From the IMG/VR virus record IMGVR_UViG_3300038505_000007, positions 45,946 through 109,945 of that record: a stretch of 64,000 bases of DNA. One strand, 5' to 3'. Under the pieces are notes generated by a model that did no database searches, was not told where the DNA came from, and saw nothing but the letters and a program-made list of their open reading frames with translations. This stretch comes from a virus. Made by a program: the position numbers and the translations under genes. Positions within the stretch are counted from its first letter, which is position 1; each line of letters starts with the position of its first letter. Shown piece by piece: positions 3,355 to 53,956 of the stretch.

Positions 3355-4470
3355 ATGAGAGCGTCAGACATTCCTAACATCTTAAATCTAGCTCTTCGAG
3401 CTAGAGAGAACGGCTTAGTATTCAATCCTATGTTCAGGGGTGAGGCTGGTCTAGGTAAATCTCAAGTAGTCCAGCAGTGGGTAGAGGAGCAGCAAAAGAA
3501 AGACCCGACTTTTGGCTTTGTCGACCTGCGCATTGCTTACATGGAGGCACCAGACTTAATCGGCTTCCCTCACAAAGAAAAAGACGAGAACAACCTAGTG
3601 AGAACCACAAACGCGCTCCCGTCTTTCTGGCCTACCTCAGGTAGAGGCCTGCTGTTCTTAGAGGAAATAAACCGCGGAAAAACATCTGTAATGAACGCTC
3701 TCATGCAGCTCCTCACAGATAGAAAGATTCATGAGTACACCCTACCTGAGGGCTGGATAATAGCCGCCGCTGTGAACCCTGATACTAGTAAGTACGACGT
3801 AAACGTTATGGACCAAGCTCTGATGGATAGGTTCGAGGTGTTCGACATCGAGTACGACCACGAGTCTTTCTCTCGATACATGGCCAAGAGCAACTGGCAT
3901 CAAAACATACAGTACTTTATCAACCAAGCTCTATGGGTGTATAAAAAACCAGAAGAGCTAGCAGAAGACGCAAAATACATCTCTCCAAGAACGTGGTCAA
4001 AGCTCAACGCTGCCGAGAAGTCTGGCTTGGCTAGTAGCCGCGCTATGCACTTCACGGTATCCACGTCTATCCTAGGTAAGAGTATCGGAACGGCCTACCA
4101 TAAGTTCTGTTTCGACGAGTCTCCTGTTACGGCCTTTGATCTACTAGAGAACACAGAGCGCTCGCTTGAGAGAATCAAGGAGCTAGTTAAAAACTCCTCG
4201 TACAGAGGCGACATGATCTCTGTATTAGTTCAATCTATCGTCCAAAACTTTGGTGGGCCAGACGAGACGTGTGAGCAGGGTAAAATACCAGAGTCCTTGA
4301 TGATCAAGGTAGCAGACATCATCCCAGCAGATCAAGCTGTTCAGCTCATCAAGGAGTGCGCTTTCGCTACCAACAAAGGCATACAGTATATCAAAGAGTT
4401 GGCAGAGAGACACAAGAGTGTCCTCAAGAGGATCAAAGCAGACGTTGTGACAGAGGACGATAAGAACTAA
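3355..4470 (+). CDS. MoxR-like AAA+ ATPase
   Basis: Walker A GEAGLGKS, Walker B LFLEEINR, AVNP sensor and DQALMDRF arginine finger; adjacent VWA gene. Confidence 0.9.
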   Translation: MRASDIPNILNLALRARENGLVFNPMFRGEAGLGKSQVVQQWVEEQQKKDPTFGFVDLRIAYMEAPDLIGFPHKEKDENNLVRTTNALPSFWPTSGRGLLFLEEINRGKTSVMNALMQLLTDRKIHEYTLPEGWIIAAAVNPDTSKYDVNVMDQALMDRFEVFDIEYDHESFSRYMAKSNWHQNIQYFINQALWVYKKPEELAEDAKYISPRTWSKLNAAEKSGLASSRAMHFTVSTSILGKSIGTAYHKFCFDESPVTAFDLLENTERSLERIKELVKNSSYRGDMISVLVQSIVQNFGGPDETCEQGKIPESLMIKVADIIPADQAVQLIKECAFATNKGIQYIKELAERHKSVLKRIKADVVTEDDKN

Positions 4471-16825: not shown

Positions 16826-16902
16826 GGGGGCTTAGCTTAGTTGGTTAAAGCAGCCGGCTCATAACCGGCGGATCGGGGGTTCGAGTCCCTCAGCCCCTAC
16901 CA
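16826..16902 (+). tRNA. tRNA with CAT anticodon (elongator Met or lysidine-modified Ile2)
   Basis: Full cloverleaf: GGGGGCT/AGCCCCT acceptor, GCTT/AAGC D-stem, GCCGG-CTCATAA-CCGGC, TTCGAGT T-loop, encoded CCA. Confidence 0.95.
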
Positions 16903-31071: not shown

Positions 31072-31159
31072 AAGAGATAGGTGTAAAACCCCTACGCCTT
31101 CAGGCTAGGGGATATAAGCCCTAATGACCTTGTTCTTGAATATATTTTTGGATAATCTC

Positions 31160-31188
31160 TTGACATACACTAATACTTTGTATATACT
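31160..31188 (+). promoter_or_regulatory. sigma-70 promoter of tnpB
   Basis: TTGACA-17 nt-TATACT. Confidence 0.8.
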
Positions 31189-31220
31189 TATAGTATATAC
31201 GAAAAGAGGGGTGAAGGTCA

Positions 31221-32329
31221 ATGATTGTAAATAAGGCATATAAATTTAGAATTTATCCAAACAAAGAACAAGAAATATTAATTAATAAAACATTTGGTTG
31301 CTCCCGATTTGTATTTAATCATTTTTTAGCAAAATGGGACAATGCTTACAAAGAAACAGGAAAAGGTCTAACTTATAATTCTTGTTCTGCTCAGTTAACA
31401 CAATTAAAAAAGAATTAACTTGGCTAAAAGAAGTAGACAAATTTTCACTCCAAAACTCTTTAAAAGACTTAGACAAGGCATTTAAAAACTTCTTTGAAGG
31501 TAATGCAAAATATCCAAAGTTTAAGTCAAAGAAAAACAAACACCAAAGTTATAGAACAAACTTTACAAATAACAATATTAAAATAGAAGGCAACAGAATA
31601 AAACTTCCTAAATTGGGATGGGTAAAGTTTGTAAAATCAAGGGAAGTAGAAGGTAAAATCTTAAATGTAACTGTCAGTAGAACGCCTATTGGCAAGTATT
31701 ATGTATCAATATGTTGTAAAATAGATGAAGTTGATAAAAAGCCTACCACTAATAAGATGATAGGCATAGATTTAGGTATAAAAGATTTTCTTGTAGATAG
31801 CGATGGGGAATAAAATACCGAATTCCAAGTATTTAATTAAGTTGGGAAAAAGACTTATCAAAGAACAAAGGAAACTTTCTAAAAAGCAGGTGGGAAGTAG
31901 TAACTTCTACAAACAAGCAAAAAAGTAGCAAAGATACATGAAAAGATAAGAAATCAAAGGGAAGACTTTTTGCACAAGTTGTCCTCTAAAATTATAAACG
32001 AAAACCAAGTTATAATTTTAGAGGATTTAAAGGTTAAAAATATGTTGAAGAATGATAGGTTATCGAAGTTCATATCAGACAGTGCATGGGCAAAATTTGT
32101 AAAAATGCTTGAGTATAAAGCATTATGGTATGGAAGAGCGATAGTAAAAGTAGATACATTTTATCCATCAAGTCAGATTTGCAGTGTATGTGGTTATAGA
32201 AATGAGAAGGTAAAGGATTTGAGCATAAGGGAATGGGAATGTCCGAAATGTGGAGCAAGGCATGACAGAGATATAAATGCCAGCATAAATATAATGAACG
32301 AAGGTAAAAGAATACTGGGTATTGCTTAA
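31221..32329 (+). pseudogene. tnpB: frameshifted TnpB RNA-guided nuclease
   Basis: [12 protein letters not shown], RuvC IGIDLG / ILEDL / HDRDINA, Zn finger CSVC..CPKC; frameshifts near 31410, 31811 and 31920. Confidence 0.92.
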
Positions 32330-37868: not shown

Positions 37869-38831
37869 TTAAGTATCAGTCTTTATAGCCTCTATCTTTA
37901 CATGACCAGTCCAAAACGTTTTGTCGCTCTTAGCAGACCTAACTCTTATAAAGAGATCAGAGACACCAAGCACATAAGACACATCAAAACCAAGCGCGCT
38001 CTTCTCTGTGTACAGAGAGTGCCACAACCCTTGCTGCTGCACGTTGCTAGATTCTCTAAAAAACAAACCCATTCTCTTAAAAGCAGCTCTCTCGCTCCCG
38101 TCGTCAAATCTACACACAGCGTCGAACTCTACTTTCACAACACTGTTGTCGTCTATGGGAATAGAGATAGCAGTCACATAAGAAGTCGAGCTAGTGGTTA
38201 GCGACCAGGTCTCTGTTCTTAATCCAGACCCTGAGTAGCCCACATGCGTTTTTTGATGAAAATGAGACAACGGAGAAGTCAAGTCTGGGCCGATAGCTAG
38301 TCTTCCTTGCTTGTTAAACACAGCCATCAGTTGATTGTTTGTTCTTATTCTTAAATCGCTAGCGTCTAGAGTACCCAAAAAATTAACCAACTCGTTGGTG
38401 CCGCTGTTTCCATCTAAGCGCCAAGATATAGAGCTAGCACTCGCATTTAGCTCTGTTAGCACATAGAGAACTCCTTGGGTGGCATGCTGCTTAACAACAG
38501 TAGCTACGATACCGCCTAAAGGCGCGACAGTTAAGTTACCAGACGAGTCTGAATACAACTCTGTGCCGACTGCCCAAGGAGAGGTATCGACATCAAACAA
38601 AAAACCAAAGCAAGTCACATACCCAAAACCACCAGCAGGTATATCCGTCGCAGCTATCCCAAAGTTTTGGTATGCACCTGGATTTGCAGGCAAGACTCTT
38701 GGGTATATGGCTCCCATCTGATCTAGCCTTACTACTTTCAACTTAGGTATCAAAGCAGTAGTATTGTTCTCTACTAGCTCGTTAGTAGGTGCGTGAAGAT
38801 CAAGTCCTCTCAGGTTCTTGTGAAAAGCCAT
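37869..38831 (-). CDS. virion fibre-like protein (320 aa)
   Basis: WRLDGNSGT..NFLGTLD..DLRIRTNN module typical of fibres. Confidence 0.65.
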   Translation of the reverse strand: MAFHKNLRGLDLHAPTNELVENNTTALIPKLKVVRLDQMGAIYPRVLPANPGAYQNFGIAATDIPAGGFGYVTCFGFLFDVDTSPWAVGTELYSDSSGNLTVAPLGGIVATVVKQHATQGVLYVLTELNASASSISWRLDGNSGTNELVNFLGTLDASDLRIRTNNQLMAVFNKQGRLAIGPDLTSPLSHFHQKTHVGYSGSGLRTETWSLTTSSTSYVTAISIPIDDNSVVKVEFDAVCRFDDGSERAAFKRMGLFFRESSNVQQQGLWHSLYTEKSALGFDVSYVLGVSDLFIRVRSAKSDKTFWTGHVKIEAIKTDT

Positions 38832-41086: not shown

Positions 41087-41923
41087 TTACAGATAATCTA
41101 TTAGATATCTCTTCTGATAATATCCTTTAGCCGCATCCATCTGCTGATCTATAAGCATCTTTAACTCATTTAATCTATTTTGCAAAAAGCTGGGACCAAG
41201 CGTTCCTACGCTCTGAGAAGTACCATCTATACCTATGCTCACAGAATTATGAGGAAATATGACTGGACCTAAAGTGGAAAGAAGCTTCCAAGCAGCGAGG
41301 TTCTCTATAAGAGAGACTAATAAAGCTGGAACCTTGTCGTTCTCAAAACCAGCCCTGTATTCTACGTATATAGCCCCAGGCCAAGAAGATATTATGCTAG
41401 CATTAAAAGCATGAAAAGCTAATCCAGCGTAAAGAGTAGCAACAAAGCTAGACAAAGTAGCGCCAGATGTCGGCACTATCTGTATTGTCATCTCTCTTGG
41501 TTGAACATGAACAAACTCAAGAGGAATATTTATCATAGCAGGAGCACCGTATATAGAGTTCCCGTTGTTAAAAGTGAGCTCAAGCTTAGAGACATCAAGT
41601 ATAGGCCCATGGTTTACTTTAAAATATCCAAAGCTCCAAAACATCTGATGCCTGCTATAATCATGCTGCTCTTTGAAAACAACTGGCGTTATGTATAGAT
41701 CTAGTACGTGCTCTATCTCAGAGATAGACTGATCAATGTAGTGCTGAATAGCGTCGTCTGTTATCTCCTCGTTTGTTAAGTAAGATCTAAGAGGAATACC
41801 AAACAGCACTGTAGCTCTCATCGAGGCAGGTGTAGGCAGAGGAAGATACCTAGTAGGAGTAGATTCCTGGTCTATCTCAAAAGCTGGAAAAGGAGAGTGA
41901 GTAGGTGTTTTTATTATTCCCAT
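41087..41923 (-). CDS. putative head-tail adaptor/neck protein
   Basis: Position in head module; YRAGF...VPALL..LI...AA and SIGIDGTSQS patterns typical of adaptors. Confidence 0.6.
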   Translation of the reverse strand: MGIIKTPTHSPFPAFEIDQESTPTRYLPLPTPASMRATVLFGIPLRSYLTNEEITDDAIQHYIDQSISEIEHVLDLYITPVVFKEQHDYSRHQMFWSFGYFKVNHGPILDVSKLELTFNNGNSIYGAPAMINIPLEFVHVQPREMTIQIVPTSGATLSSFVATLYAGLAFHAFNASIISSWPGAIYVEYRAGFENDKVPALLVSLIENLAAWKLLSTLGPVIFPHNSVSIGIDGTSQSVGTLGPSFLQNRLNELKMLIDQQMDAAKGYYQKRYLIDYL

Positions 41924-43843
41924 TTATCCCCCAATGTTTGGTTTTTTAATCTTTACATTCATAGCAGATGCGCCGCCTGGTCTCCTAATCACAGATGGCT
42001 TATCTGCGCTAGGCTTAATATCTGTGTCAGTGCTACTAGAAGGCATATTAGTATCTACGCTTTGTGGTCTTACTTGTGAAACCGTAGGCTGCTTAAACTC
42101 CTGTTTGGACATAGCAGCTCCAGCAGGCTTTGCCTCTACTGCCGACATCTTAGGTCGCTCTTCTGTTGACTTAGGAGTAGGAGCTTTTAATTCAGAGGTA
42201 GAACTATGAGACTCAGGAGCTTTAATAGCTTGATTCTGCTCTTTTTGAGCCTTAATCTGAGATATTAATTTGGAAGCTTTTTCTGGATCAGGTAGCTTGC
42301 TCAATACGTTCTGCATTCTTTTTTCATTAACATATTTCTTATGAGCTCTCCTGATCTCGCTGGGTATCTGGTCCTGAGATTTCAGCGCGGTCATCTGCAT
42401 ACCTTTTATCTTATTCGCAGCATAAGAGCTAAAACTAGTGTTGTATCTTGGGTCGTAGTCATTTATCGCCTGAAAAAGCGCATGCATCCCAGCCTCGTGC
42501 AGAAGAGACATGTCTACATCGCTCTTCTTAGGATCCAGGCCTAGTGTTTTTATGGCCCTGTTAGCTGAAATAGATATAAGCGGATAATACGTAGAAAAGA
42601 ACTTCTCAAATTTTGGATCTGAGGCAGGAGCAGGGCCTAAAAGCCTAGAGAGATCTCGCTTAGAGTGCTCGTCAAATGTAGCCATCTCTGACAAAGAAGT
42701 TGGCTTTTTAGCTTTTTGATTATATATCTTAGAGTACTCTTGTATGAAGTCTTGATTCTTTGACGCGAACGAAGAAACTGGATCAGACAGAAAACTCGCC
42801 TGCGTGCCAGAATCATCATCACCCTTTACTCCTCCGACGTGTTGAGCAGCCTCTTCCATTGATATAGAAGACGGTAAGCTTTGCGCGCCGGAAAGCACAG
42901 ATTGTATCGCTTCTTGTTTCTTTTGATTATATATATCCTTATATGCTTTAGATTTTTGATGAGCCTCAGAGTGAGCCTTCATGGCCTCCATTAAATGAGA
43001 TGGATTTTTCTGCCTCCACTCGTTCTCAAACTTCTCATCCATCTCCATCCTTGTTATTGGGTCTGCTGACTGATACTCAGCAGAGGATACCATTTCTTCG
43101 TACGCTCTTCTCTTATCAGCAAAGAACTTGTTTCTAGCTTCAATAGTAGAACCCTGATGAGCTAGGACAGGGTTTTTAGAGGGGTCTGCTTTTAATCTAG
43201 CAGCGTCTCTTGCTCTTCTTACCCACGGTATAGTGTAAGACCTATACTGTTTTAACTCTTCTGGCGTCGGCTGCGGGAACGAGGAGATCCTCGTCTTCTT
43301 GTTTTGAGTTTTTTCTTCGCCAATTCCGGAGTCTTTTTCCGAGTAAGACTCATCATCATCAAAGAGAGATTCCCCATGACCGTGTAGCTCCACACCAAAA
43401 TCTTCTGCCGCAGACTTCGCATCAGACTCATCAATGTCGTCATAATCAGCATAGGAATCATCATCACTTTCTCTTTTAGGGTCATTTTCTTCGAGCCATC
43501 TGTCTTCACCATCTTTTTTTCCTTCCTCGTCTATTACATGGAATCCCTCTGGGATTTCGCTTTCTTCATCTTGATTATACTCATCCATGTAATCACTGTC
43601 CTGGTACAGAGCTCTTTTTCTAGCTTTTGATAGCTCATCTAGTATCACAGCCGCTGCGGCGCCTTCTTGACCGCTGTTTAGTATGTAATTTTTAGCCTTC
43701 TTCATTGTGTGGTATATCTTATTAACTAGAGCCCAGTCTTTATCAGTAAAAGCATCAACACTCTTCTTCTTGCTAGAAGAAACAGCATCTTTTGCTCTTT
43801 TCCACTTTTGCTCATCTTTTTTAGATCTAACAAAGCCGGGCAT
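41924..43843 (-). CDS. 639-aa acidic protein containing an embedded FliA-like sigma-70 region 2
   Basis: YYPLI..SANR...VDMSLLHEAGMHALFQAINDYDPRYNTSFSSYAANKIKGMQMTALKSQDQIP. Confidence 0.7.
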   Translation of the reverse strand: MPGFVRSKKDEQKWKRAKDAVSSSKKKSVDAFTDKDWALVNKIYHTMKKAKNYILNSGQEGAAAAVILDELSKARKRALYQDSDYMDEYNQDEESEIPEGFHVIDEEGKKDGEDRWLEENDPKRESDDDSYADYDDIDESDAKSAAEDFGVELHGHGESLFDDDESYSEKDSGIGEEKTQNKKTRISSFPQPTPEELKQYRSYTIPWVRRARDAARLKADPSKNPVLAHQGSTIEARNKFFADKRRAYEEMVSSAEYQSADPITRMEMDEKFENEWRQKNPSHLMEAMKAHSEAHQKSKAYKDIYNQKKQEAIQSVLSGAQSLPSSISMEEAAQHVGGVKGDDDSGTQASFLSDPVSSFASKNQDFIQEYSKIYNQKAKKPTSLSEMATFDEHSKRDLSRLLGPAPASDPKFEKFFSTYYPLISISANRAIKTLGLDPKKSDVDMSLLHEAGMHALFQAINDYDPRYNTSFSSYAANKIKGMQMTALKSQDQIPSEIRRAHKKYVNEKRMQNVLSKLPDPEKASKLISQIKAQKEQNQAIKAPESHSSTSELKAPTPKSTEERPKMSAVEAKPAGAAMSKQEFKQPTVSQVRPQSVDTNMPSSSTDTDIKPSADKPSVIRRPGGASAMNVKIKKPNIGG

Positions 43844-43851
43844 AGAGACAC

Positions 43852-45279
43852 CTATTTCTTCTTAAATCGTTCTAACAACTCTTTTGGCAAGTGCTTAAAA
43901 TGATCAGCTGATAGATCAATTGCTGGCTTGACCTGTTGAGCCGGCTGCTCGCTCTGAGTCTTGGGCGCGCTGACTGGTTTGACTTCAGCAGGTTTGATAG
44001 GAGCTTGTGGTTTAGCTGCAGCAGCTGAGGACGTAAAAACAGAAGATTGAGTAATGTTTTTTATAGGAGCGGAGCTAGAGGGCTTAGTACTTGATGGCTC
44101 GCTATCTGGTTTAACTATATTGTCAGCTCTTATTCTGAAAGAAGACGTGCCTAATTCTTGTTTCTTAGGTTGTAAAGTTTCTTGACTTGGTTCCTCTATA
44201 GTATTGCCCTCGTTATCTGCAGGTCTGTTTGCTAGCTCTTTTGGAGACAGGTTACCTTGACCAAATTTTTCCGCAAACTTACTTTTTAGCTCATCTGGTA
44301 GAGCATCCATTATTTGATTCTTTTTTCTAGAGTGCTCAGGGGGATCTATTAGCTTGATGTCTGAAAAGAAGTGATCTGGTTTTTTCTTGGGAGCCTCATG
44401 AAACAAGAACTGAGCTTGTTTTGGGTTTTCCTTAAACATCTGTTTGACTCGGTTGAGCCATCTAGTGTTGTGCTCAGAAGTGTTCCACTCATTCATCTTA
44501 TTATAGTAAGACTCCATCGTTTCTGGAGTAAGCATATCTTGTCTTATATCTGCTACAGAGTTTATGGGGTGAAAGTCAAACTCATGCGGAACATACTTAT
44601 CCACGTCTTCTACGTCAACAATAGGTATGTATCCCTCGCCGGCATCTATTGATTTTGAGTGCCCTATTTGGAGCTCTTCAAAAGGATACCCACCAGAGAA
44701 CCTCATCTTTTTTGCATCGGGGTGCTCTGGATGCGCAGGCATCTCTAAATAACGATAGTCGGGAACAGACCTAGAAACACCATACTTAGACTGACCAGTA
44801 GACTTCCTAGGTCTCCTTCCTAGGCCTTTTGTTCCCTCTATGAGTTTTCCCGTCTCTGGTCTTCTATCTAACGTAGTGTAGTTAGATTCCCATGCCTCTA
44901 AAGGCACGTAATCCATGTCTAGTTGACCACCAGAATGAGGAGCAGCTCTCGCAATTAGGTGTAGTAGAGGTATGAGCCTAGATATATGAGCATCAGCTAC
45001 TTCGCGCTTCCCTCTCTTCAATGCAGACTTATACCTGCTCAAATGATGAGACACTGCGTCTCTTATCATCTGGGTGTCTTTATTGGTCAAGCTGTTAGCC
45101 CAACCAACCACAGCAGAGTTGGTACTCCTTCCCATTGAGGCGTGCGGGCGAGCCATCTTGTTTAGAGACTCTATAACATAACTAGTAAGCTCTTCATCGG
45201 ACGCAGATAAAATAGCCTTCTTTAACTCTAGATCGTCTGTCTTCTTAAGAAGAAGCCTACGAAGACTGCTAAGACCCAT
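43852..45279 (-). CDS. hypothetical protein (475 aa), Pro/Lys/Ser-rich C-terminal tail
   Basis: Long ORF, AAGGAGG SD. Confidence 0.75.
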   Translation of the reverse strand: MGLSSLRRLLLKKTDDLELKKAILSASDEELTSYVIESLNKMARPHASMGRSTNSAVVGWANSLTNKDTQMIRDAVSHHLSRYKSALKRGKREVADAHISRLIPLLHLIARAAPHSGGQLDMDYVPLEAWESNYTTLDRRPETGKLIEGTKGLGRRPRKSTGQSKYGVSRSVPDYRYLEMPAHPEHPDAKKMRFSGGYPFEELQIGHSKSIDAGEGYIPIVDVEDVDKYVPHEFDFHPINSVADIRQDMLTPETMESYYNKMNEWNTSEHNTRWLNRVKQMFKENPKQAQFLFHEAPKKKPDHFFSDIKLIDPPEHSRKKNQIMDALPDELKSKFAEKFGQGNLSPKELANRPADNEGNTIEEPSQETLQPKKQELGTSSFRIRADNIVKPDSEPSSTKPSSSAPIKNITQSSVFTSSAAAAKPQAPIKPAEVKPVSAPKTQSEQPAQQVKPAIDLSADHFKHLPKELLERFKKK

Positions 45280-45591: not shown

Positions 45592-45657
45592 AATATCTCC
45601 TGAGCTAAAAACAGCTCATAATATTATACCACTTCCTGAACTATAAATAATCGGGAA

Positions 45658-46482
45658 TTAATCTTTAACAGGCACCTTCATTTCTTTTCTTGCGTCAGGC
45701 TCTATCAGATTGGTCTTGGACCTAAACTCTGCACCACATTTCTTGCATTTAAACTTTTGATATTTACCTACTTTTGTGTAGTAGAAGCCATTTTTCTTTA
45801 ACTCAGTAGACCCACAGGAACACATGTGCTCGTTGTCTTTATTAAATAAAGACCAGTTGATAGTTGGGGCCCAGGGGGCAAGCTTTTTATAAAGCTCCTC
45901 TAAGGCTAGAACATCATGCTTGTTGTATTCTTCCATTTCTTTAAATGCCTCAATATTCCCTTTCATACACTCACGCCACATCTCAAAGCCTTGGAACTTT
46001 TTAGGCTTAAGCTTCTTATAAGACTGGCAAAGCGTATTAGAGAGGTACTCTAGCCTATTAGAAGTAAAATCAAAGTGCTTTTTAGCTATCTCTTTTGTAT
46101 CTATGTGTTTAAAGGAAGAAGGCGGCTGAAAGCCATTTATGATAAATCTTGCGTTTAGCTTTCTTTGATCAAATCTTTTCCCATTCTGGGTTATAACAAC
46201 ATCGGCTTTATCCAGTAACTCCCATATTTGTTTAAGCAAGTCTGAGTCGTCTTCTATGTTCTTAGCATGTCTTTGATCCATGTACATGATCTCATCTTCT
46301 GGGGAATTAAGCCATTTGGCGCTCCAGCTCAATATAAACCAGTCGCTTATAACATGGTTTAACTGAACCTCTTTATCCCACAAAGACCAAACATAGGCAG
46401 ACAAAGGTGCAGTCTCAATATCAAAGACAAGAACTTTAGCCCCATACTTGGGGGGATCAAATATCTTCACTTTTTTAGACAT
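45658..46482 (-). CDS. DnaQ/RNase_H_2-like 3'-5' exonuclease with C-terminal Zn ribbon
   Basis: VFDIETA, NGKRFD, YNKHDV; CSCG...CKKCG. Confidence 0.85.
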   Translation of the reverse strand: MSKKVKIFDPPKYGAKVLVFDIETAPLSAYVWSLWDKEVQLNHVISDWFILSWSAKWLNSPEDEIMYMDQRHAKNIEDDSDLLKQIWELLDKADVVITQNGKRFDQRKLNARFIINGFQPPSSFKHIDTKEIAKKHFDFTSNRLEYLSNTLCQSYKKLKPKKFQGFEMWRECMKGNIEAFKEMEEYNKHDVLALEELYKKLAPWAPTINWSLFNKDNEHMCSCGSTELKKNGFYYTKVGKYQKFKCKKCGAEFRSKTNLIEPDARKEMKVPVKD

Positions 46483-47270: not shown

Positions 47271-48836
47271 CTAAAACTTATTAGGCTTACTAGAACCAGC
47301 AACAGACTGTTTTATATGAGGCGTCTCTACTTTTACAGGTTTTGGAACTATTTGTTTCGGTTTTTTGATAACATCTGGCTGAGGTTTTGGTTGAGAAAAC
47401 TCTGTTTTAACAGAAGGTGATTCATTAACATTTTGTTGCTCTTTTTTACCAGCAGGAGCACCAGAAGCAGAAGCGTGCCACTGCATTATAGATTTCTTCT
47501 GTTCTGGACTAGAAGAGGACCAAATGTTGGCAAACTCATCTTTGTCCATTCCGTAAGACTCTGCTATATGAAAAGGTATTTCTTCAGCAGAAGGCTCTTT
47601 TTGCTTACGATCAACGCTGGTCACAGTTGGTTGTTTATCTTTACTAGCAGCAGAAGAGCCTATTTTTTGCTTATGCTCATTGTGAAACCTTATTGTCTCT
47701 AACTTCTGATCGTCAGACATGTTTTTCCATGCTGACTTGAACCCCTCTGGGTCTACATTATGTATCTCTGCAAAATCAGAAGGAAACTCTATAGAAGATC
47801 TCTTCTCAGAAGAGACTGTTTCCTTAGGTTTTTCTTGGTTAAACTTTTTCTTCTTTTCGTTGTAATAATCTAAGGTTACTTTTTTCTGATCATTGTTCAT
47901 AGCAGACCAGGATGTCAACATTTTCTGCGCGTCTACGCCTAATACGTCTGCTAAATCATCAGGCATGGTGTATTTTTCTTTAACTACAAATGTTGAAGGG
48001 TCTTTGCGCTTTGGTTTACTAGATGACTCAAAAACCAAATCTGTGTTTATAGAGGGGTCGTAAACATTCTTAGGTAAAGTTCCGCTCTTGGTTGCGCCTG
48101 TATTTATCTTGTTTGGCTGATCGTCTGGTATATCTTCTATATTTCTTGCGTATTTTTGCTTAATAGCGTTTTTCTTGTTATTATATTGATCAACCATGAA
48201 CTTCTTCTGCTCAGGAGTCATTCTGTGCCAAGCTTCAATAAAATTAGATGGCTCAACATTAAAAACCTCATGGAAATCATGAGGCAAAGTAGGTTCATCT
48301 TCTTGTCCCACTGCAGGCTTAAAGAGTTCTTTTTGATCTTTTAAATGATCTGGAGCTTCACCTGAATATTGTTGGTTAATGTAGTTTTGCAGATTATCGT
48401 TTAATAGTTTTTCTACTCTCTTCTTGTGCTCTATGAGCATGTTTTTGCGCTCTTCATCGCTCATCCTAGCCCAGTTTTCTTCAAACTTCTTTGGGTCAAC
48501 CCCATAAAACTTAGGCAGGTCTCTTGGATATCCTAATGGAGTAGAACTATAATCTTGATATCTCTGTTTTGGGGAAGGAAAAATAGCTGAATAATCTATA
48601 TCTTTATCTTTTTGACTCCTACTTCGAGGCTTATCTATACCAGCTCCGCCTGCGTATACTATTTTGTCTATATTTTGTCTAGCTAATTGCTTCTGCTTCT
48701 GAGACGCAGATGGGTTTCTTAGTATATCTACGTTTCTAAATAACTCATTTAGAAGTTTTCTATTAACAGATGATTTTGCTAAATTGCTGTCTACAAAATT
48801 GATAATATCTACTATCAACTTAACAATATCTTGCAT
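47271..48836 (-). CDS. 521-aa protein with five copies of a ~39-aa helical repeat
   Basis: Five P.D.....V.P..F...W..M..(E/D)QK..... units. Confidence 0.8.
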   Translation of the reverse strand: MQDIVKLIVDIINFVDSNLAKSSVNRKLLNELFRNVDILRNPSASQKQKQLARQNIDKIVYAGGAGIDKPRSRSQKDKDIDYSAIFPSPKQRYQDYSSTPLGYPRDLPKFYGVDPKKFEENWARMSDEERKNMLIEHKKRVEKLLNDNLQNYINQQYSGEAPDHLKDQKELFKPAVGQEDEPTLPHDFHEVFNVEPSNFIEAWHRMTPEQKKFMVDQYNNKKNAIKQKYARNIEDIPDDQPNKINTGATKSGTLPKNVYDPSINTDLVFESSSKPKRKDPSTFVVKEKYTMPDDLADVLGVDAQKMLTSWSAMNNDQKKVTLDYYNEKKKKFNQEKPKETVSSEKRSSIEFPSDFAEIHNVDPEGFKSAWKNMSDDQKLETIRFHNEHKQKIGSSAASKDKQPTVTSVDRKQKEPSAEEIPFHIAESYGMDKDEFANIWSSSSPEQKKSIMQWHASASGAPAGKKEQQNVNESPSVKTEFSQPKPQPDVIKKPKQIVPKPVKVETPHIKQSVAGSSKPNKF

Positions 48837-48921: not shown

Positions 48922-50370
48922 TTATTTTCCAACGTTCTCGAAGACACCGTTGAAACGAGGAGCATATACGAACAACGCGCCATAGAGGACTAACGCAAAC
49001 TCTAAAGCAGTCGTAACGATAGCAAAGTTGATCTTAGTGAGAGGAGACAACTGCTTGAACTTCATAGTCTCAGGAGAGAGATCTAACAAGAAAGCTTCTC
49101 CAAGACCGGGGAGTTTGCGTCCAGCAAGTCTGTATGTAGCATTTCCTTTAGAAGCAAAAGCTCCAACAAACTTCTCAGTACCAACAGCGCCACCTGGTGC
49201 AGACATGTATACGCGTATAGACTTAACACCTGCAGGCATGTTAGTGACAGTTAAGTCAATGTTTTGACCAGCAGTGATTGTTACAGGAGCTAATTGCAAA
49301 GGAATAGACTCGCCGTGGTCATTACGCAGAGTCACTTTAATTTGATAAGTACCTGCATCAAGAGCAGAACCAGTACCAGCGCCAGCAGCAGTTACAGCTA
49401 AAGAGCCAAGAGCAGGGGCAGCAGGGCTTACTGCAAGCATCTTAGCAGTGCTGCGAGGACGCAAGAATACGTTTGGTTTAAAATCAATTCTTCCAGCGCT
49501 AGTAGTGACGTTAGAAACACTGTAACCTACTGTTTGGTTAGCCAAACCAGGCTCAGAGCGGAACTGAGGATAGAATTGACGAACAAAAGCAGATAAAGCA
49601 GCTGGCTCGATGTGGAGTTCAGTAGGATGACCAAAGTTCTCCAAAGCAACAACTGCAAGTTTTTCGATATCATCTTGCATCAAGATGTCGCCGCGCAAAT
49701 CTTTAACTACAGAGCTAGAATCGCCATAGCCTTCAAAATCACCAGAGCGATGCAGTACATCTGTGTCGCCTTTTTTGATTTGCTTTAATAGACCGTTCAT
49801 CTCGATGCTATTAGCAGGAAGATCAGCATCAGAACCATCTAAAGCACCAGTGAGCTGGTTAAGGAAGTGAGCATGTCCCCAGTAGAGCTCGCGCTCGATG
49901 CTCTTCAACATGTGGAGAGTTCCTTCCTTAACACGCTGAGCGATGATGTCTCCGACGGTGTTGCGGACCAGTGTCATTTGGTGAGAAACTTTCATTCTTA
50001 CACCAAAGAACACGATCTTTTGACCGTCACGTACATAGATCGCATCTTCTTCCATTGGAGCTCCGCCTTCGCCGATGTAAGGAGCAGAGTCAGAGCCGTA
50101 AGAGATGATACGATTGTATTGCTCGAAAAGGTTATAAGCCTTATCGATGGAGATGCTCTGCCATAAAACGATATTTTTAGAATCAAAAGTTACACTTTTC
50201 AAGGTAGCATCTAAAGACTCAGCTTGAAGAACACCACCACCTGTGAGATCAGTGGGTTTTCCAGCACCGCCGTAACCAGCAGTTAAAGCCTTGTTCAAGG
50301 CCTCTAAGTCAGCTGGAGACACCAGCCCCTGGTTGATTCCGCTTATTAGTTGATCGATAGCCTCTTGCAT
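48922..50370 (-). CDS. major capsid protein
   Basis: Position after protease/scaffold, strong terminator, KA..AGYG...LQAESLD N-arm, EQYNR..SYG, Ig-like insertion, LYGAL C-terminus. Confidence 0.88.
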   Translation of the reverse strand: MQEAIDQLISGINQGLVSPADLEALNKALTAGYGGAGKPTDLTGGGVLQAESLDATLKSVTFDSKNIVLWQSISIDKAYNLFEQYNRIISYGSDSAPYIGEGGAPMEEDAIYVRDGQKIVFFGVRMKVSHQMTLVRNTVGDIIAQRVKEGTLHMLKSIERELYWGHAHFLNQLTGALDGSDADLPANSIEMNGLLKQIKKGDTDVLHRSGDFEGYGDSSSVVKDLRGDILMQDDIEKLAVVALENFGHPTELHIEPAALSAFVRQFYPQFRSEPGLANQTVGYSVSNVTTSAGRIDFKPNVFLRPRSTAKMLAVSPAAPALGSLAVTAAGAGTGSALDAGTYQIKVTLRNDHGESIPLQLAPVTITAGQNIDLTVTNMPAGVKSIRVYMSAPGGAVGTEKFVGAFASKGNATYRLAGRKLPGLGEAFLLDLSPETMKFKQLSPLTKINFAIVTTALEFALVLYGALFVYAPRFNGVFENVGK

Positions 50371-50390: not shown

Positions 50391-51095
50391 TTATTTAATG
50401 TTGTATTTTTCTGCAATTTGTTGTAGTTCTAGCCCAGTATCAACCTTAGCGATATCTAAGGTATCAACTTTATGACCGCTCTTCTTGAGTTCTAATAATT
50501 TGTTAACCAGCTCTGATTTGCTCAAAACTGTCTCTCCAGAGTGAGAAGACTTAGCGAGCACGCTAGTCTTAACAGAGAAACCTTTTTGGGGAAGAGGTTG
50601 GTTAGCAATCTTATTAACAACGTCAAGAAGTGAAGAAAGTTTTTCTTCGATGGGCTTAATTCGCTCATCTACATAGCTCTTTAACAAAGTCTCTGTCTTT
50701 TTAAGAGACTTGTTAAGACTAGATTTGTGCATTTCTAAAATCTCTTTAGCTGCTTCTTTTGTTTCTTCTTTGTACGGATGTTTTTTCTTCTTTTCTTCTT
50801 CGTCTTCTTCTTCTTTCTCTTCGTCTTCTTTTTCTTCTTTCTTCTCTTCTTCATCTTCTGCTTTTTCCATTTCAGAAGACTCTTTTTCTTCCTCTTCCTC
50901 TTCTTCTTTCTTATCTTTCTCTTCTTCTTCGTGCTCGGACTTTTTTGAGCTCTCTAATTCACCGTTGGCGTCTATTCCTGCCATACCTGAATCAGAGTCT
51001 CCAATTTTGCCCTCTACGGCAGATATACGAGACTTTATGAGCTCTTCAACCTCATGAATAGTCTCGTCGATAAGATCTAATAATCCTTTTTCCAT
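50391..51095 (-). CDS. putative scaffold protein
   Basis: Poly-Glu/Lys, coiled-coil, directly upstream of MCP; multiple xxK(S/A) motifs. Confidence 0.7.
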   Translation of the reverse strand: MEKGLLDLIDETIHEVEELIKSRISAVEGKIGDSDSGMAGIDANGELESSKKSEHEEEEKDKKEEEEEEEKESSEMEKAEDEEEKKEEKEDEEKEEEDEEEKKKKHPYKEETKEAAKEILEMHKSSLNKSLKKTETLLKSYVDERIKPIEEKLSSLLDVVNKIANQPLPQKGFSVKTSVLAKSSHSGETVLSKSELVNKLLELKKSGHKVDTLDIAKVDTGLELQQIAEKYNIK

Positions 51096-51598: not shown

Positions 51599-53242
51599 TT
51601 ACTTATTTTTTTTATAAGAATCAGTTAGTTTTTTTAGTTGATCAAAAGATATGGGAGAAGCGCAGTGCCTGCACTTGACCTGATGTTTAAAATATACCTG
51701 ATTTTTACCACAATTGTTGCAAACAAACTCCACTAACCCTTTGTGTCCATCTAGGGACTCAGCCTGCAGAACACTGCCGCCTGTCAGGCTAGACGGAGAA
51801 CCAGCGTACCCATAACCGGCGTATAATGCTTTTTTTATATCAGAAGGTATCTTAGACTTAACTTTATTTACATACCAGTGGTTAGATATAGAGTTTTGGC
51901 CGCCGTCTTTTAGCTTTTTCCATGAACCAGAAAGACCGTTATACCAAGCATAGAAAGCATGGTCTGGGTTTATAGTCTTTTTCTTTATATACTTAAAAGC
52001 AGTGGTGGCTACATCTTTGTCAAGCTCAGGATTTGAATTAAGCAGCTCTGTTATCTTGTGGTGGTTCTTGCCAACATCAGACGCGAGCTCTGCTAGCTGC
52101 GGATACTTTTGTTTTAAGGCGTCGTCTTTAGAGACGGTTAGCGCAACAAAGTGAGGCATTAAACCAAAAGCCCCTCCTGCTTTATGTCCAAAATGTACAC
52201 TATTAGGATTTTTTATGGTTCTATGTGATATGTTCTTGCCCCCTGAGGACTCTACTTGAGCTATAGCAAAAAGTTCTGGATGTGAGTCTTTTATAGACTC
52301 CACTACATGTGCATGCGTAATTTTAGGAGTATCCTGAACATGGGCTTGTGATTGCTGCTTAACATTAGGTATGTTTGCTGAAATAGGAGCAAGCCCTACC
52401 ATCGTACCCAATATCTTTGCTTTTATGTTCTTTATAAGGTTCTCGTCGTATTGCGAGTTATCTAAGGAATAGAGTTCATCTCTTATCTGCTCTATCTCTT
52501 TATGTATCTTTACTAAGTTATTTTTAATTTTCTTGTTGATAGCCTTTTTTATGAGCTCCTCTTTAGAGGGTATCTTTATAGAAGAAGTATCCACGCCGTA
52601 TTTTGACAATATGTTAACTATTTTAAGCAAGTTAGACTCAATCTTCTCTGCACTGGCCATCCTTGTTATCTGTCTAAAGGAAGGCACATCTGTCATGGCT
52701 AGATGCAGAACAGAGTTTATTATAGCCATGTCTGCTTTATCGTCGTGTCTTGACTTATCAATAGAGAGGGGCTCAACTAAGGTATTTTGGTTAGCAGGAG
52801 TGAATGTAAGAGCAACTGAGTGTATCTTTGTCCTAGCTAGCAGTTTGGGATCAGATACGCCTCTGGCTATAACAGAGCCCTCAACAGAGGCTTTTAGCTG
52901 AAGGGGGCTATCTGTCTTGTGTATGTTTCTTAATATAGCAGCGGCTGCCCTAGCATTTGGATGGTCTTCGTCGTCAAATAAGTACCCTTTTACGTATATA
53001 AAAGGTACCTTTATCTTATTCCAGTAGTATTTCTGCCTCTCATCAGTGGCGTCCTCTTCCTTTAATATCTTCTTAGCAAACGTGATTCGACCTATAGTGT
53101 TAAAAAAGCCAGCCCCATGGTTGTCGTTAAACCTACCACGGCCAGCCTCTAATTCAGATATATCTGCTCCCTCTATAGATAAGACTTCTCCTTGAGTGTC
53201 TCTTATCTCAGAGCCAGCTATCATGTCTATATTTAGTCTCAT
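51599..53242 (-). CDS. prohead protease fused to lytic transglycosylase, capsid N-arm copy and Zn ribbon
   Basis: DTQGE...NDNH(His)...ASVEG(Ser); AIAQVESSGG(Glu)...FGLMP...WYNG; KALYAGYG...LQAESLD; CNNC..CRHC. Confidence 0.8.
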   Translation of the reverse strand: MRLNIDMIAGSEIRDTQGEVLSIEGADISELEAGRGRFNDNHGAGFFNTIGRITFAKKILKEEDATDERQKYYWNKIKVPFIYVKGYLFDDEDHPNARAAAAILRNIHKTDSPLQLKASVEGSVIARGVSDPKLLARTKIHSVALTFTPANQNTLVEPLSIDKSRHDDKADMAIINSVLHLAMTDVPSFRQITRMASAEKIESNLLKIVNILSKYGVDTSSIKIPSKEELIKKAINKKIKNNLVKIHKEIEQIRDELYSLDNSQYDENLIKNIKAKILGTMVGLAPISANIPNVKQQSQAHVQDTPKITHAHVVESIKDSHPELFAIAQVESSGGKNISHRTIKNPNSVHFGHKAGGAFGLMPHFVALTVSKDDALKQKYPQLAELASDVGKNHHKITELLNSNPELDKDVATTAFKYIKKKTINPDHAFYAWYNGLSGSWKKLKDGGQNSISNHWYVNKVKSKIPSDIKKALYAGYGYAGSPSSLTGGSVLQAESLDGHKGLVEFVCNNCGKNQVYFKHQVKCRHCASPISFDQLKKLTDSYKKNK

Positions 53243-53626: not shown

Positions 53627-53956
53627 TTATCTGGATTCCTTTATAGTCTTGTTCAACTTTAACTTGTTCTTTGCTTTCTTCTCTATGTTTCTAACAGTAT
53701 CCACCGATATATTAAGCAGTGCCGCAATCTCTATCTCAGAGAGAGTCTCTTCTGGACCCAGCTTGTCGTACGCTAGCTTAAAAAAGCAATAACAAGCACT
53801 TTGGCTATCTACAGCCCATGGGCAACCAGGAAGGTTGTTTTCTTCCTCCTCTGAGAGTTCTTTTCCTGCCGTCCTGATAGCCCGCAGTCTCATTACAGCT
53901 AGCGGGCACCAGGTGTCAGGATATGTTTTTAGCTTTCTTGGGCACCTTTGGTCCAT
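53627..53956 (-). CDS. Cys-rich domain plus sigma-70 region-4 HTH
   Basis: TLSEIEIAALLNISVDTVRNIEKKAKNKL; five N-terminal Cys. Confidence 0.75.
   Translation of the reverse strand: MDQRCPRKLKTYPDTWCPLAVMRLRAIRTAGKELSEEEENNLPGCPWAVDSQSACYCFFKLAYDKLGPEETLSEIEIAALLNISVDTVRNIEKKAKNKLKLNKTIKESR

Follow-up and report, generated by a model that had tools for sequence, protein, structure and literature searches.

Why does a phage protein encoded among head genes contain a piece of a sigma factor? The question is raised by an open reading frame (ORF) of 639 amino acids (aa), P0001, located at 41924..43843 on the minus strand of the window analysed here, a stretch of 64,000 nucleotides (nt) that corresponds to positions 45,946 to 109,945 of the IMG/VR virus record IMGVR_UViG_3300038505_000007. 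An earlier note on this DNA, made from the letters of the sequence, had perceived in the ORF a sigma-28-type region 2 and proposed that a protease releases it within the virion, to bind the core RNA polymerase of the host on entry as a decoy or as an early specificity factor. We found that P0001 is a head-module family protein into which a sigma domain 2 (sigma-2) has been inserted, and we tentatively propose that a subclade of uncultured SPO1-like phages may pack this FliA-derived, sigma-2-only docking protein and inject it with the DNA, thereby capturing the core polymerase of the host.

Residues ~410-505 of P0001 (42329..42616, on the minus strand like all parts of the ORF given below) are a genuine FliA/WhiG-type sigma domain 2, comprising regions 2.1-2.4, together with the first helix of region 3. 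The NCBIfam FliA/WhiG model TIGR02479 matched over positions 3-148 of its 224 with an E value of 7.5e-12 (45.5 bits), the E values of four further models of the FliA and WhiG kind ranged from 4e-5 to 4e-11, and phmmer aligned the domain with the solved E. coli FliA (6pmi_F, E 8.3e-7) with no gaps through regions 2.2-2.4. The segment singled out by the earlier note, at ~42335-42615, corresponds to residues 419-499 (42347-42589), and its similarity to sigma-28 is indeed far above chance. Pfam Sigma70_r2 reached only an E value of 0.2 on P0001; its threshold of 24 bits was passed by two relatives, P0047 (27.3 bits) and P0060 (24.9 bits). The match was also found at the level of structure, where an AlphaFold2 model of residues 185-530 (38 homologues in the alignment; predicted local distance difference test score, pLDDT, of 75.6) aligned at Z 6.7-8.2 with the sigma-2 domains of SigB, RpoS, pro-sigma-K, SigE, WhiG, T4 gp55, sigma-32 and sigma-28. 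Sigma factors likewise occupied the top rows of a Foldseek search with the two-domain model, at scores that were not significant.

To locate the functional residues, positions described for the Pseudomonas sigma-28 (PMC12784957) were transferred to P0001 through the phmmer alignment to E. coli FliA. Tyrosine 76 of sigma-28, which stacks on the -11A base, corresponds to Y474 in P0001 and to a histidine in most relatives; R80 corresponds to K478, which is at least 90% conserved, R82 to K480 (arginine in most relatives) and D93 to D491, and the signature of helix 2.2 is kept as E450, G452, L456 and A459. The positions through which sigma-28 contacts the beta-prime coiled coil and the -10 DNA are thus kept or conservatively replaced, and the sigma-2 module is intact. 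It is moreover the best-conserved segment of the whole protein, with a mean top-residue frequency of 0.59 among 75 representatives. The remainder of a sigma factor was not found. As the earlier note had stated, there is no region 4, neither in P0001 nor in ten long relatives, and in most relatives only about 60-90 residues follow sigma-2; the model shows one helix only after region 2.4, with no sigma-3 bundle and no 3.2 finger, and beyond profile position ~105 the TIGR02479 match enters low-complexity sequence that the relatives lack. With a score below the curated whole-protein cut-off of that model (45.5 versus 189.6 bits) and without domains 3 and 4, P0001 belongs to no curated sigma-factor family. 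A prediction of the complex between sigma-2 (residues 405-529, with alignment) and residues 230-340 of E. coli beta-prime, used as a stand-in, gave no verdict and weighs neither way.

The protein that carries the domain is a member of an unannotated family from uncultured SPO1-like myoviruses, defined by full-length homology and a common genomic slot. About 40 homologues of 414-669 aa were retrieved by a word-indexed search and 94 with E values below 1e-30 by a profile search of 1.8 billion representatives; PHROGs holds no family for P0001 nor for ten relatives devoid of sigma-2. In the alignment, members follow the order of an optional basic N-terminal module, a nearly invariant L-x-K-A, an acidic linker, a core of ~210 aa, sigma-2 and a short basic tail. 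The N-terminal module of P0001 (residues 1-50, 43694..43843, net charge +8), present in about two thirds of the sigma-2-bearing relatives, ends in a conserved M-x-K↓A/S/G motif (residues 47-50; ↓ marks a putative cut), and a putative prohead-protease site of L-S-K↓A sequence (residues 71-74, 43622..43633), in which L71 and K73 are nearly invariant, directly precedes the acidic linker. This linker (residues 81-187, 43283..43603) is poorly conserved, bears a net charge of -29 and includes a conserved W116-L117 motif. The central domain (residues 188-400, 42644..43282) is the conserved core of the family, consists of long helical hairpins and is also found in the relatives without sigma-2; it showed no specific known fold, and the ESM Atlas gave no usable match. 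The acidic flank described in the earlier note thus exists, but it does not abut the sigma segment, since this conserved helical domain lies between them. On the other side, residues 506-615 (41999..42328) form short helices followed by a Pro/Ser/Lys-rich low-complexity stretch without region 4, and the C-terminal low-complexity flank that had been claimed is real, but it lies at residues 546-615 and occurs only in this phage and its closest relatives (alignment occupancy 0.18). The ORF ends with a basic tail of the I-R-R-P-G-G type (residues 616-639, 41927..41998); both this tail and a helix motif of the R-L-K-R type, which in this phage sits further up, near residues 520-545, are common to relatives without sigma-2. 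When a shared portable tag was looked for, none of the modules of the family recurred in other ORFs of the 126-kilobase (kb) genome.

The distribution of the domain shows that sigma-2 is an accessory insertion between the core domain and the tail, defining essentially one subclade. A domain map and a tree were made for 132 representatives with a complete core domain; sigma-2 was present in 87 of them and missing in 45, and many relatives of 330-450 aa hold everything but sigma-2, the core passing straight into the same basic tail. In a quick maximum-likelihood tree built from the core domain, one clade (97% support) has sigma-2 in 80 of its 81 rows, the forms without it are basal after midpoint rooting, and at least 2 changes of gain or loss are needed, 7 by parsimony. 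With the capsid protein as anchor, 80 IMG/VR loci were compared; members with sigma-2 occurred where that protein was at least ~67% identical to the one of the phage studied here, and members without it at 60-67% identity. Judging from the residue conservation described above, the insert has since been retained under what appears to be strong constraint. No description of such an architecture, in which a conserved head-module protein has acquired a sigma-2, was found in the libraries or the literature searched. Even if the packaging proposal fails, a natural experiment is at hand, in that closely related phages differ in whether the same head-module protein has the insert.

P0001 lies, as the earlier note had stated, among head and neck genes, and the phage that encodes this head and neck module is large and a distant relative of SPO1 and other Herelleviridae. 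The module includes the major capsid protein (48922-50370, about 32% identical to SPO1 gp6.1), the prohead protease (51599-53242), an acidic scaffold-like protein (50391-51095, minus strand) and a cement-type protein (37869-38831). Within it, P0001 sits in a conserved, translationally coupled operon. The upstream partner gene, of 475 aa (43852..45279, minus strand), is separated from it by an 8-nt gap that becomes an overlap in relatives, and the ATG of the downstream gene, a 278-aa homologue of SPO1 gp6.3 (41087..41923, minus strand; PHROG 772, with a weak head-tail adaptor match), comes immediately after its TAA. In every contig examined the order was capsid protein, then thymidylate kinase, and further on a protein of ~105 aa, one of ~350-480 aa, the family member and the gp6.3-like gene, and this order and the abutting or overlapping stops and starts hold whether or not the family member includes sigma-2. 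In one case, P0088 (L009:3839-6208), the upstream gene of the 475-aa type is fused to the family member.

The N-terminal motifs were then considered in the light of the other proteins that the prohead protease would process. The N-arm of the capsid protein of this phage reads E-A-L-N-K↓A-L-T-A-G-Y-G, the C-terminal region of the protease repeats (I/L/M/V)-(K/N)-K↓A-L-(T/Y)-A-G-Y-G in this phage and in relatives, and the capsid protein of SPO1 has D-A-L-N-K↓A-L. The annotated scaffold of SPO1 (gp3.3, L095:2198-2932) contains about 13 hydrophobic-x-K-S motifs, and the scaffold-like protein of the window has 8 hydrophobic-x-K-S/A motifs when 1.3 are expected (z 5.6), the strongest excess in the genome. 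From these capsid, protease-tail and scaffold motifs we infer that SPO1-type prohead proteases cut after hydrophobic-x-Lys and before Ala or Ser, a specificity for which no measured value was found in the literature; the rule is testable and could predict capsid cargo across the large SPO1-type group. P0001 has exactly two such motifs, the M-K-K↓A at residues 47-50 and the L-S-K↓A at residues 71-74 that the earlier note had pointed out, kept in 17 and 18, respectively, of 23 aligned relatives, and none in residues 75-639. In T4, degraded core proteins are cut many times, whereas for the proteins retained in the virion processing is limited to the removal of a short propeptide at the N-terminus (PMC9026906). 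The motif pattern of P0001 resembles that of the retained virion proteins, not that of the degraded core proteins. It speaks against the release of a free sigma-2 module that had been envisaged, because no conserved site separates the core domain from sigma-2; the predicted cuts would remove only the N-terminal 49 or 73 residues.

Taken together, these features make it a reasonable, if tentative, proposal that P0001 is an N-terminally trimmed, capsid-carried and co-injected protein whose sigma-2 would dock on the RNA polymerase of the host. The protein would be made late, together with the head proteins, as the late-type promoter common to the structural genes and the conserved slot suggest. 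It would enter the prohead by means of its protease-trimmed N-terminal signal, lose to the protease only its first 49 or 73 residues, in the manner of T4 Alt and the internal proteins, stay in the capsid and leave with the DNA at ejection. Sigma-2 would then dock on the beta-prime clamp helices of the host core enzyme and, like T4 gp55, which has no sigma-4, contact a -10-like element. Even a small number of injected copies could in this way direct polymerase to the phage DNA ahead of any expression of phage genes. Few copies might suffice because such a factor would recycle, whereas a decoy, being stoichiometric, would fail at such numbers. The decoy role suggested earlier is accordingly unlikely, with a few dozen injected copies facing thousands of polymerases and with phage promoters that look dependent on the primary sigma of the host. 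Phages are known to take over host transcription by three routes, namely sigma factors made after infection, injected modifying enzymes such as T4 Alt, and an injected whole polymerase as in N4 and phiKZ; if the proposal is right, sigma-2 injected as a module would add a fourth to these routes, smaller than the other three. As far as our literature searches reach, no report of a sigma factor inside a virion was found.

The promoters of the phage bear on this proposal and on its alternatives. The operon that encodes the 99-aa, 475-aa, P0001 and adaptor-like proteins is preceded by a promoter region (45592..45657, minus strand) with the inverted repeat TTCCCGA (45657-45651) N11 TCAGGAA (45639-45633) followed by TGG-TATAAT (45631-45623), an architecture resembling that found before the protease, portal and scaffold-side genes of the window. 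Short intergenic regions of the structural block share a TGGTATAAT-type element, a strong -10-type sequence with no -35 hexamer, and orthologous operons, from phages with and without sigma-2 alike, have an inverted repeat centred near -29 and then (T)GGTATAAT. This late-promoter architecture was conserved in the window and in loci L001, L005, L006 and L015-L094, with half-sites of the CCYGA...TCRGG type in sigma-2-bearing phages and of the AACCGA...TCGGTT type in the others. Such promoters look as if they were served by the host primary sigma together with a dimeric phage activator, and since they are the same in phages without sigma-2, they argue against P0001 as a late-promoter specificity factor. 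A generic sigma-70 promoter scan around the P0001 gene gave no excess over shuffled sequences. The genome, of which 126 kb are available (estimated 75% complete), was also searched for transcription genes; it encodes no complete sigma factor and no homologue of a multisubunit polymerase beta subunit, and the model for single-subunit (T7-type) polymerases had no match, in a search run without a working positive control. The only sigma-like pieces in it are the sigma-2 of P0001 and a 109-aa Cys-rich protein with a sigma-70 region-4 helix-turn-helix (53627-53956, minus strand; PF04545, 25.3 bits, above the cut-off), encoded two genes upstream of the prohead protease. A split sigma factor formed by both proteins was considered and rejected as the principal explanation, given that the small gene was missing from none of the loci covering its slot, with or without sigma-2. 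It is a core gene of the phage clade, and the 109-aa protein is a candidate for the dimeric late activator or for another DNA-binding role.

Several observations weigh against a capsid-carried docking protein. At the position whose aromatic side chain stacks on the flipped -11 base, most relatives have histidine instead of tyrosine, relatives without the module use the same type of late promoter, and no distinct class of promoters attributable to a sigma-2-only factor was found. The specificity of the protease rests on motif patterns, and the motif is so short that about 3 occurrences would be expected by chance in a protein of the composition of P0001. Position alone does not prove a structural role, because thymidylate kinase and exonuclease genes are interspersed in the same cluster. 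Finally, tblastn against 50,697 phage records found nothing for P0001 or for two relatives without sigma-2, hence no cultured carrier, and no virion proteome can be borrowed.

Several of the features described above would also fit a factor acting late inside the infected cell and never delivered by the virion, an explanation we regard as unlikely, where sigma-2 binds RNA polymerase and might tether polymerase, transcribing or stalled, together with its DNA to proheads or to the packaging machinery, or might pull polymerase off DNA about to be packaged. The late-type promoter shared with the head genes and the coupling to head-module proteins are what such a factor would have, the residues for contacting polymerase and DNA are conserved, and a precedent exists in the sigma-2-only T4 gp55, which was reported to interact with the terminase gp17 (Malys et al. 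2002, reference 59 of PMC9026906). The host-type extended -10 of the late promoters is at odds with it, because a competitor of the host sigma would harm the late transcription of the phage itself unless it were sequestered, and the N-terminal protease-type sites, with none further along, are better explained by entry into the prohead.

It is also rather improbable, to a degree beyond the previous explanation, that sigma-2 acts like gp55 and takes the place of the host sigma at TGGTATAAT-type promoters, the 109-aa sigma-4-like protein possibly being its partner as the other half of a split sigma. The idea draws on these two being the only sigma-like pieces in 126 kb, on the structural-gene promoters with their strong -10-type element and no -35 hexamer, and on the fold match to gp55 (7d7d_F, Z 7.0, root-mean-square deviation 3.8, 98 residues aligned), which is level with other sigma-2 domains. 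It must contend, however, with orthologues devoid of sigma-2 in the same slot of phages that keep TGGTATAAT preceded by an inverted repeat, with a sigma-4-like gene that does not co-vary with sigma-2, with that inverted repeat at about -29, which suggests that a dimeric activator assists the host sigma, and with the location of the gene itself, as a factor needed for late promoters is not normally encoded only behind one of them. That the sigma-2 fold has been exapted with no role on RNA polymerase, binding for instance another phage protein, or DNA of the packaged genome that is single-stranded or terminal, is very unlikely, for although the family works without sigma-2 in many phages, has no sigma-3 or sigma-4, embeds the domain in a head-module protein and mostly has His for the -11A-stacking Tyr, conservation follows the canonical sigma-2 surface (the helix 2.2 signature and the basic residues of regions 2.4/3.0), which would not be expected if the fold alone mattered.

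Other genes of the module deserve description in their own right. The 475-aa partner protein has a strictly conserved E-S-L-x-K↓M-A near its N-terminus and an invariant His-rich set (H78, H79, H98, W130, E131, H183, P199, H232, D235 and P238) that suggests a metal site. Its model, a confident one (pLDDT 75, with 204 residues at 90 or more), had no fold match in the PDB by Foldseek (best E 1.8) or VIA-align (best Z 4.5) and nothing in the AlphaFold DB clusters, and its sequence had no tblastn match in the 50,697 phage records and no usable match in the ESM Atlas. Just downstream of the capsid gene, a 521-aa protein (47271-48836, minus strand) consists in part of five ~45-aa repeats matching DUF7026 and, weakly, HMG-box; with an N-L-A-K↓S motif at its N-terminus, it may be a candidate DNA-binding head-internal protein. 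In Myxococcus phage Mx1 (L010:9833-16139), genes for a 1479-aa 'NUDIX hydrolase' and a 619-aa 'kinase' stand right after the gp6.3 homologue. Genes for large accessory proteins, possibly packaged ones, may generally cluster around the gp6.3-like adaptor gene. The capsid protein of Thermus phage phiYS40 is distantly related to that of the phage studied here, but no equivalent genes were found beside its head genes.

Some regulatory elements were observed elsewhere in the window. In the leader of the 99-aa gene (45596-45612, minus strand), a short hairpin lies directly against the Shine-Dalgarno sequence, and in leaders of relatives (e.g. L006:8452-8472) a hairpin GTCTC...GAGAC overlaps it; this could be a translational control element. 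A second class of motif, TTYCTGAAA-like and itself a short palindrome, lies 9-13 nt 5' of a TATAAT-like hexamer and precedes many plus-strand genes of the replication and nucleotide metabolism block (starts at 3355, 4622, 9297, 14880, 24398 and 27955). A near-consensus host-type promoter, TTGACA-N17-TATACT, at about 31140-31200 (plus strand), 5' of a small ORF (31221-31418), is likely to be early and dependent on the host primary sigma. The window also holds a single tRNA-Met (CAT) gene at 16826-16902 (plus strand).

The capsid-carried docking protein proposed here can be set beside several known systems. Regions 2.1-2.4 and the start of 3.0 align ungapped with FliA/WhiG, that is, with sigma-28 (E. 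coli, 6pmi; P. aeruginosa, PMC12784957), and P0001 keeps the beta-prime-binding helix signature and basic residues at the R80 and R82 positions; as in sigma-28, the tryptophan wedge is missing. Unlike FliA/WhiG, it has no sigma-3 bundle, no sigma-3.2 finger and no sigma-4, and its sigma domain is an insertion in a 639-aa head-module protein. T4 gp55, which works with gp33 and the gp45 clamp, is the closest functional parallel in having a sigma-2-like domain alone, so that P0001 too could act on polymerase without sigma-4. Gp55 itself is, however, a small stand-alone protein of its own sequence family, with a clamp-binding tail, and is needed for late promoters, whereas P0001 has 639 aa, four other conserved segments, a sequence nearer to cellular FliA, late expression and protease-type sites, and the related phages do without sigma-2 and keep the same late promoters. 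A gp55-type family was absent from the Pfam, NCBIfam and PHROG matches of P0001, and its fold match to gp55 (7d7d_F) was no better than to cellular sigma-2 domains.

In its predicted route P0001 most resembles T4 Alt and the internal proteins IPI-III, with which it would share an N-terminal propeptide ending at a putative prohead-protease motif, with the remainder free of sites, as well as being encoded and expressed with the head genes, and, like Alt, it would act on the host RNA polymerase on entry (PMC9026906). It differs from them in the motif, hydrophobic-x-Lys↓ as opposed to Leu/Ile-x-Glu↓ in T4, and in having no sequence relation to them; moreover, it would act by binding and not, as Alt does, by enzymatic modification. 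The virion RNA polymerase of N4 and the virion multisubunit polymerase of the phiKZ type likewise bring transcription machinery in with the genome, as is proposed for P0001, but those phages bring a whole polymerase, and P0001 would contribute only a docking and promoter-melting module dependent on the host core enzyme. Lastly, Bacillus pro-sigma-E and pro-sigma-K also place a sigma-type domain in a precursor with an N-terminal piece removable by a protease, as predicted for P0001, and the sigma-2 of pro-sigma-K was among its fold matches (8vjl_B, Z 7.5). In Bacillus the substrates are complete sigma factors and membrane proteases do the cutting, whereas the cut in P0001 is predicted to be made by the capsid protease more than 330 residues upstream of sigma-2.

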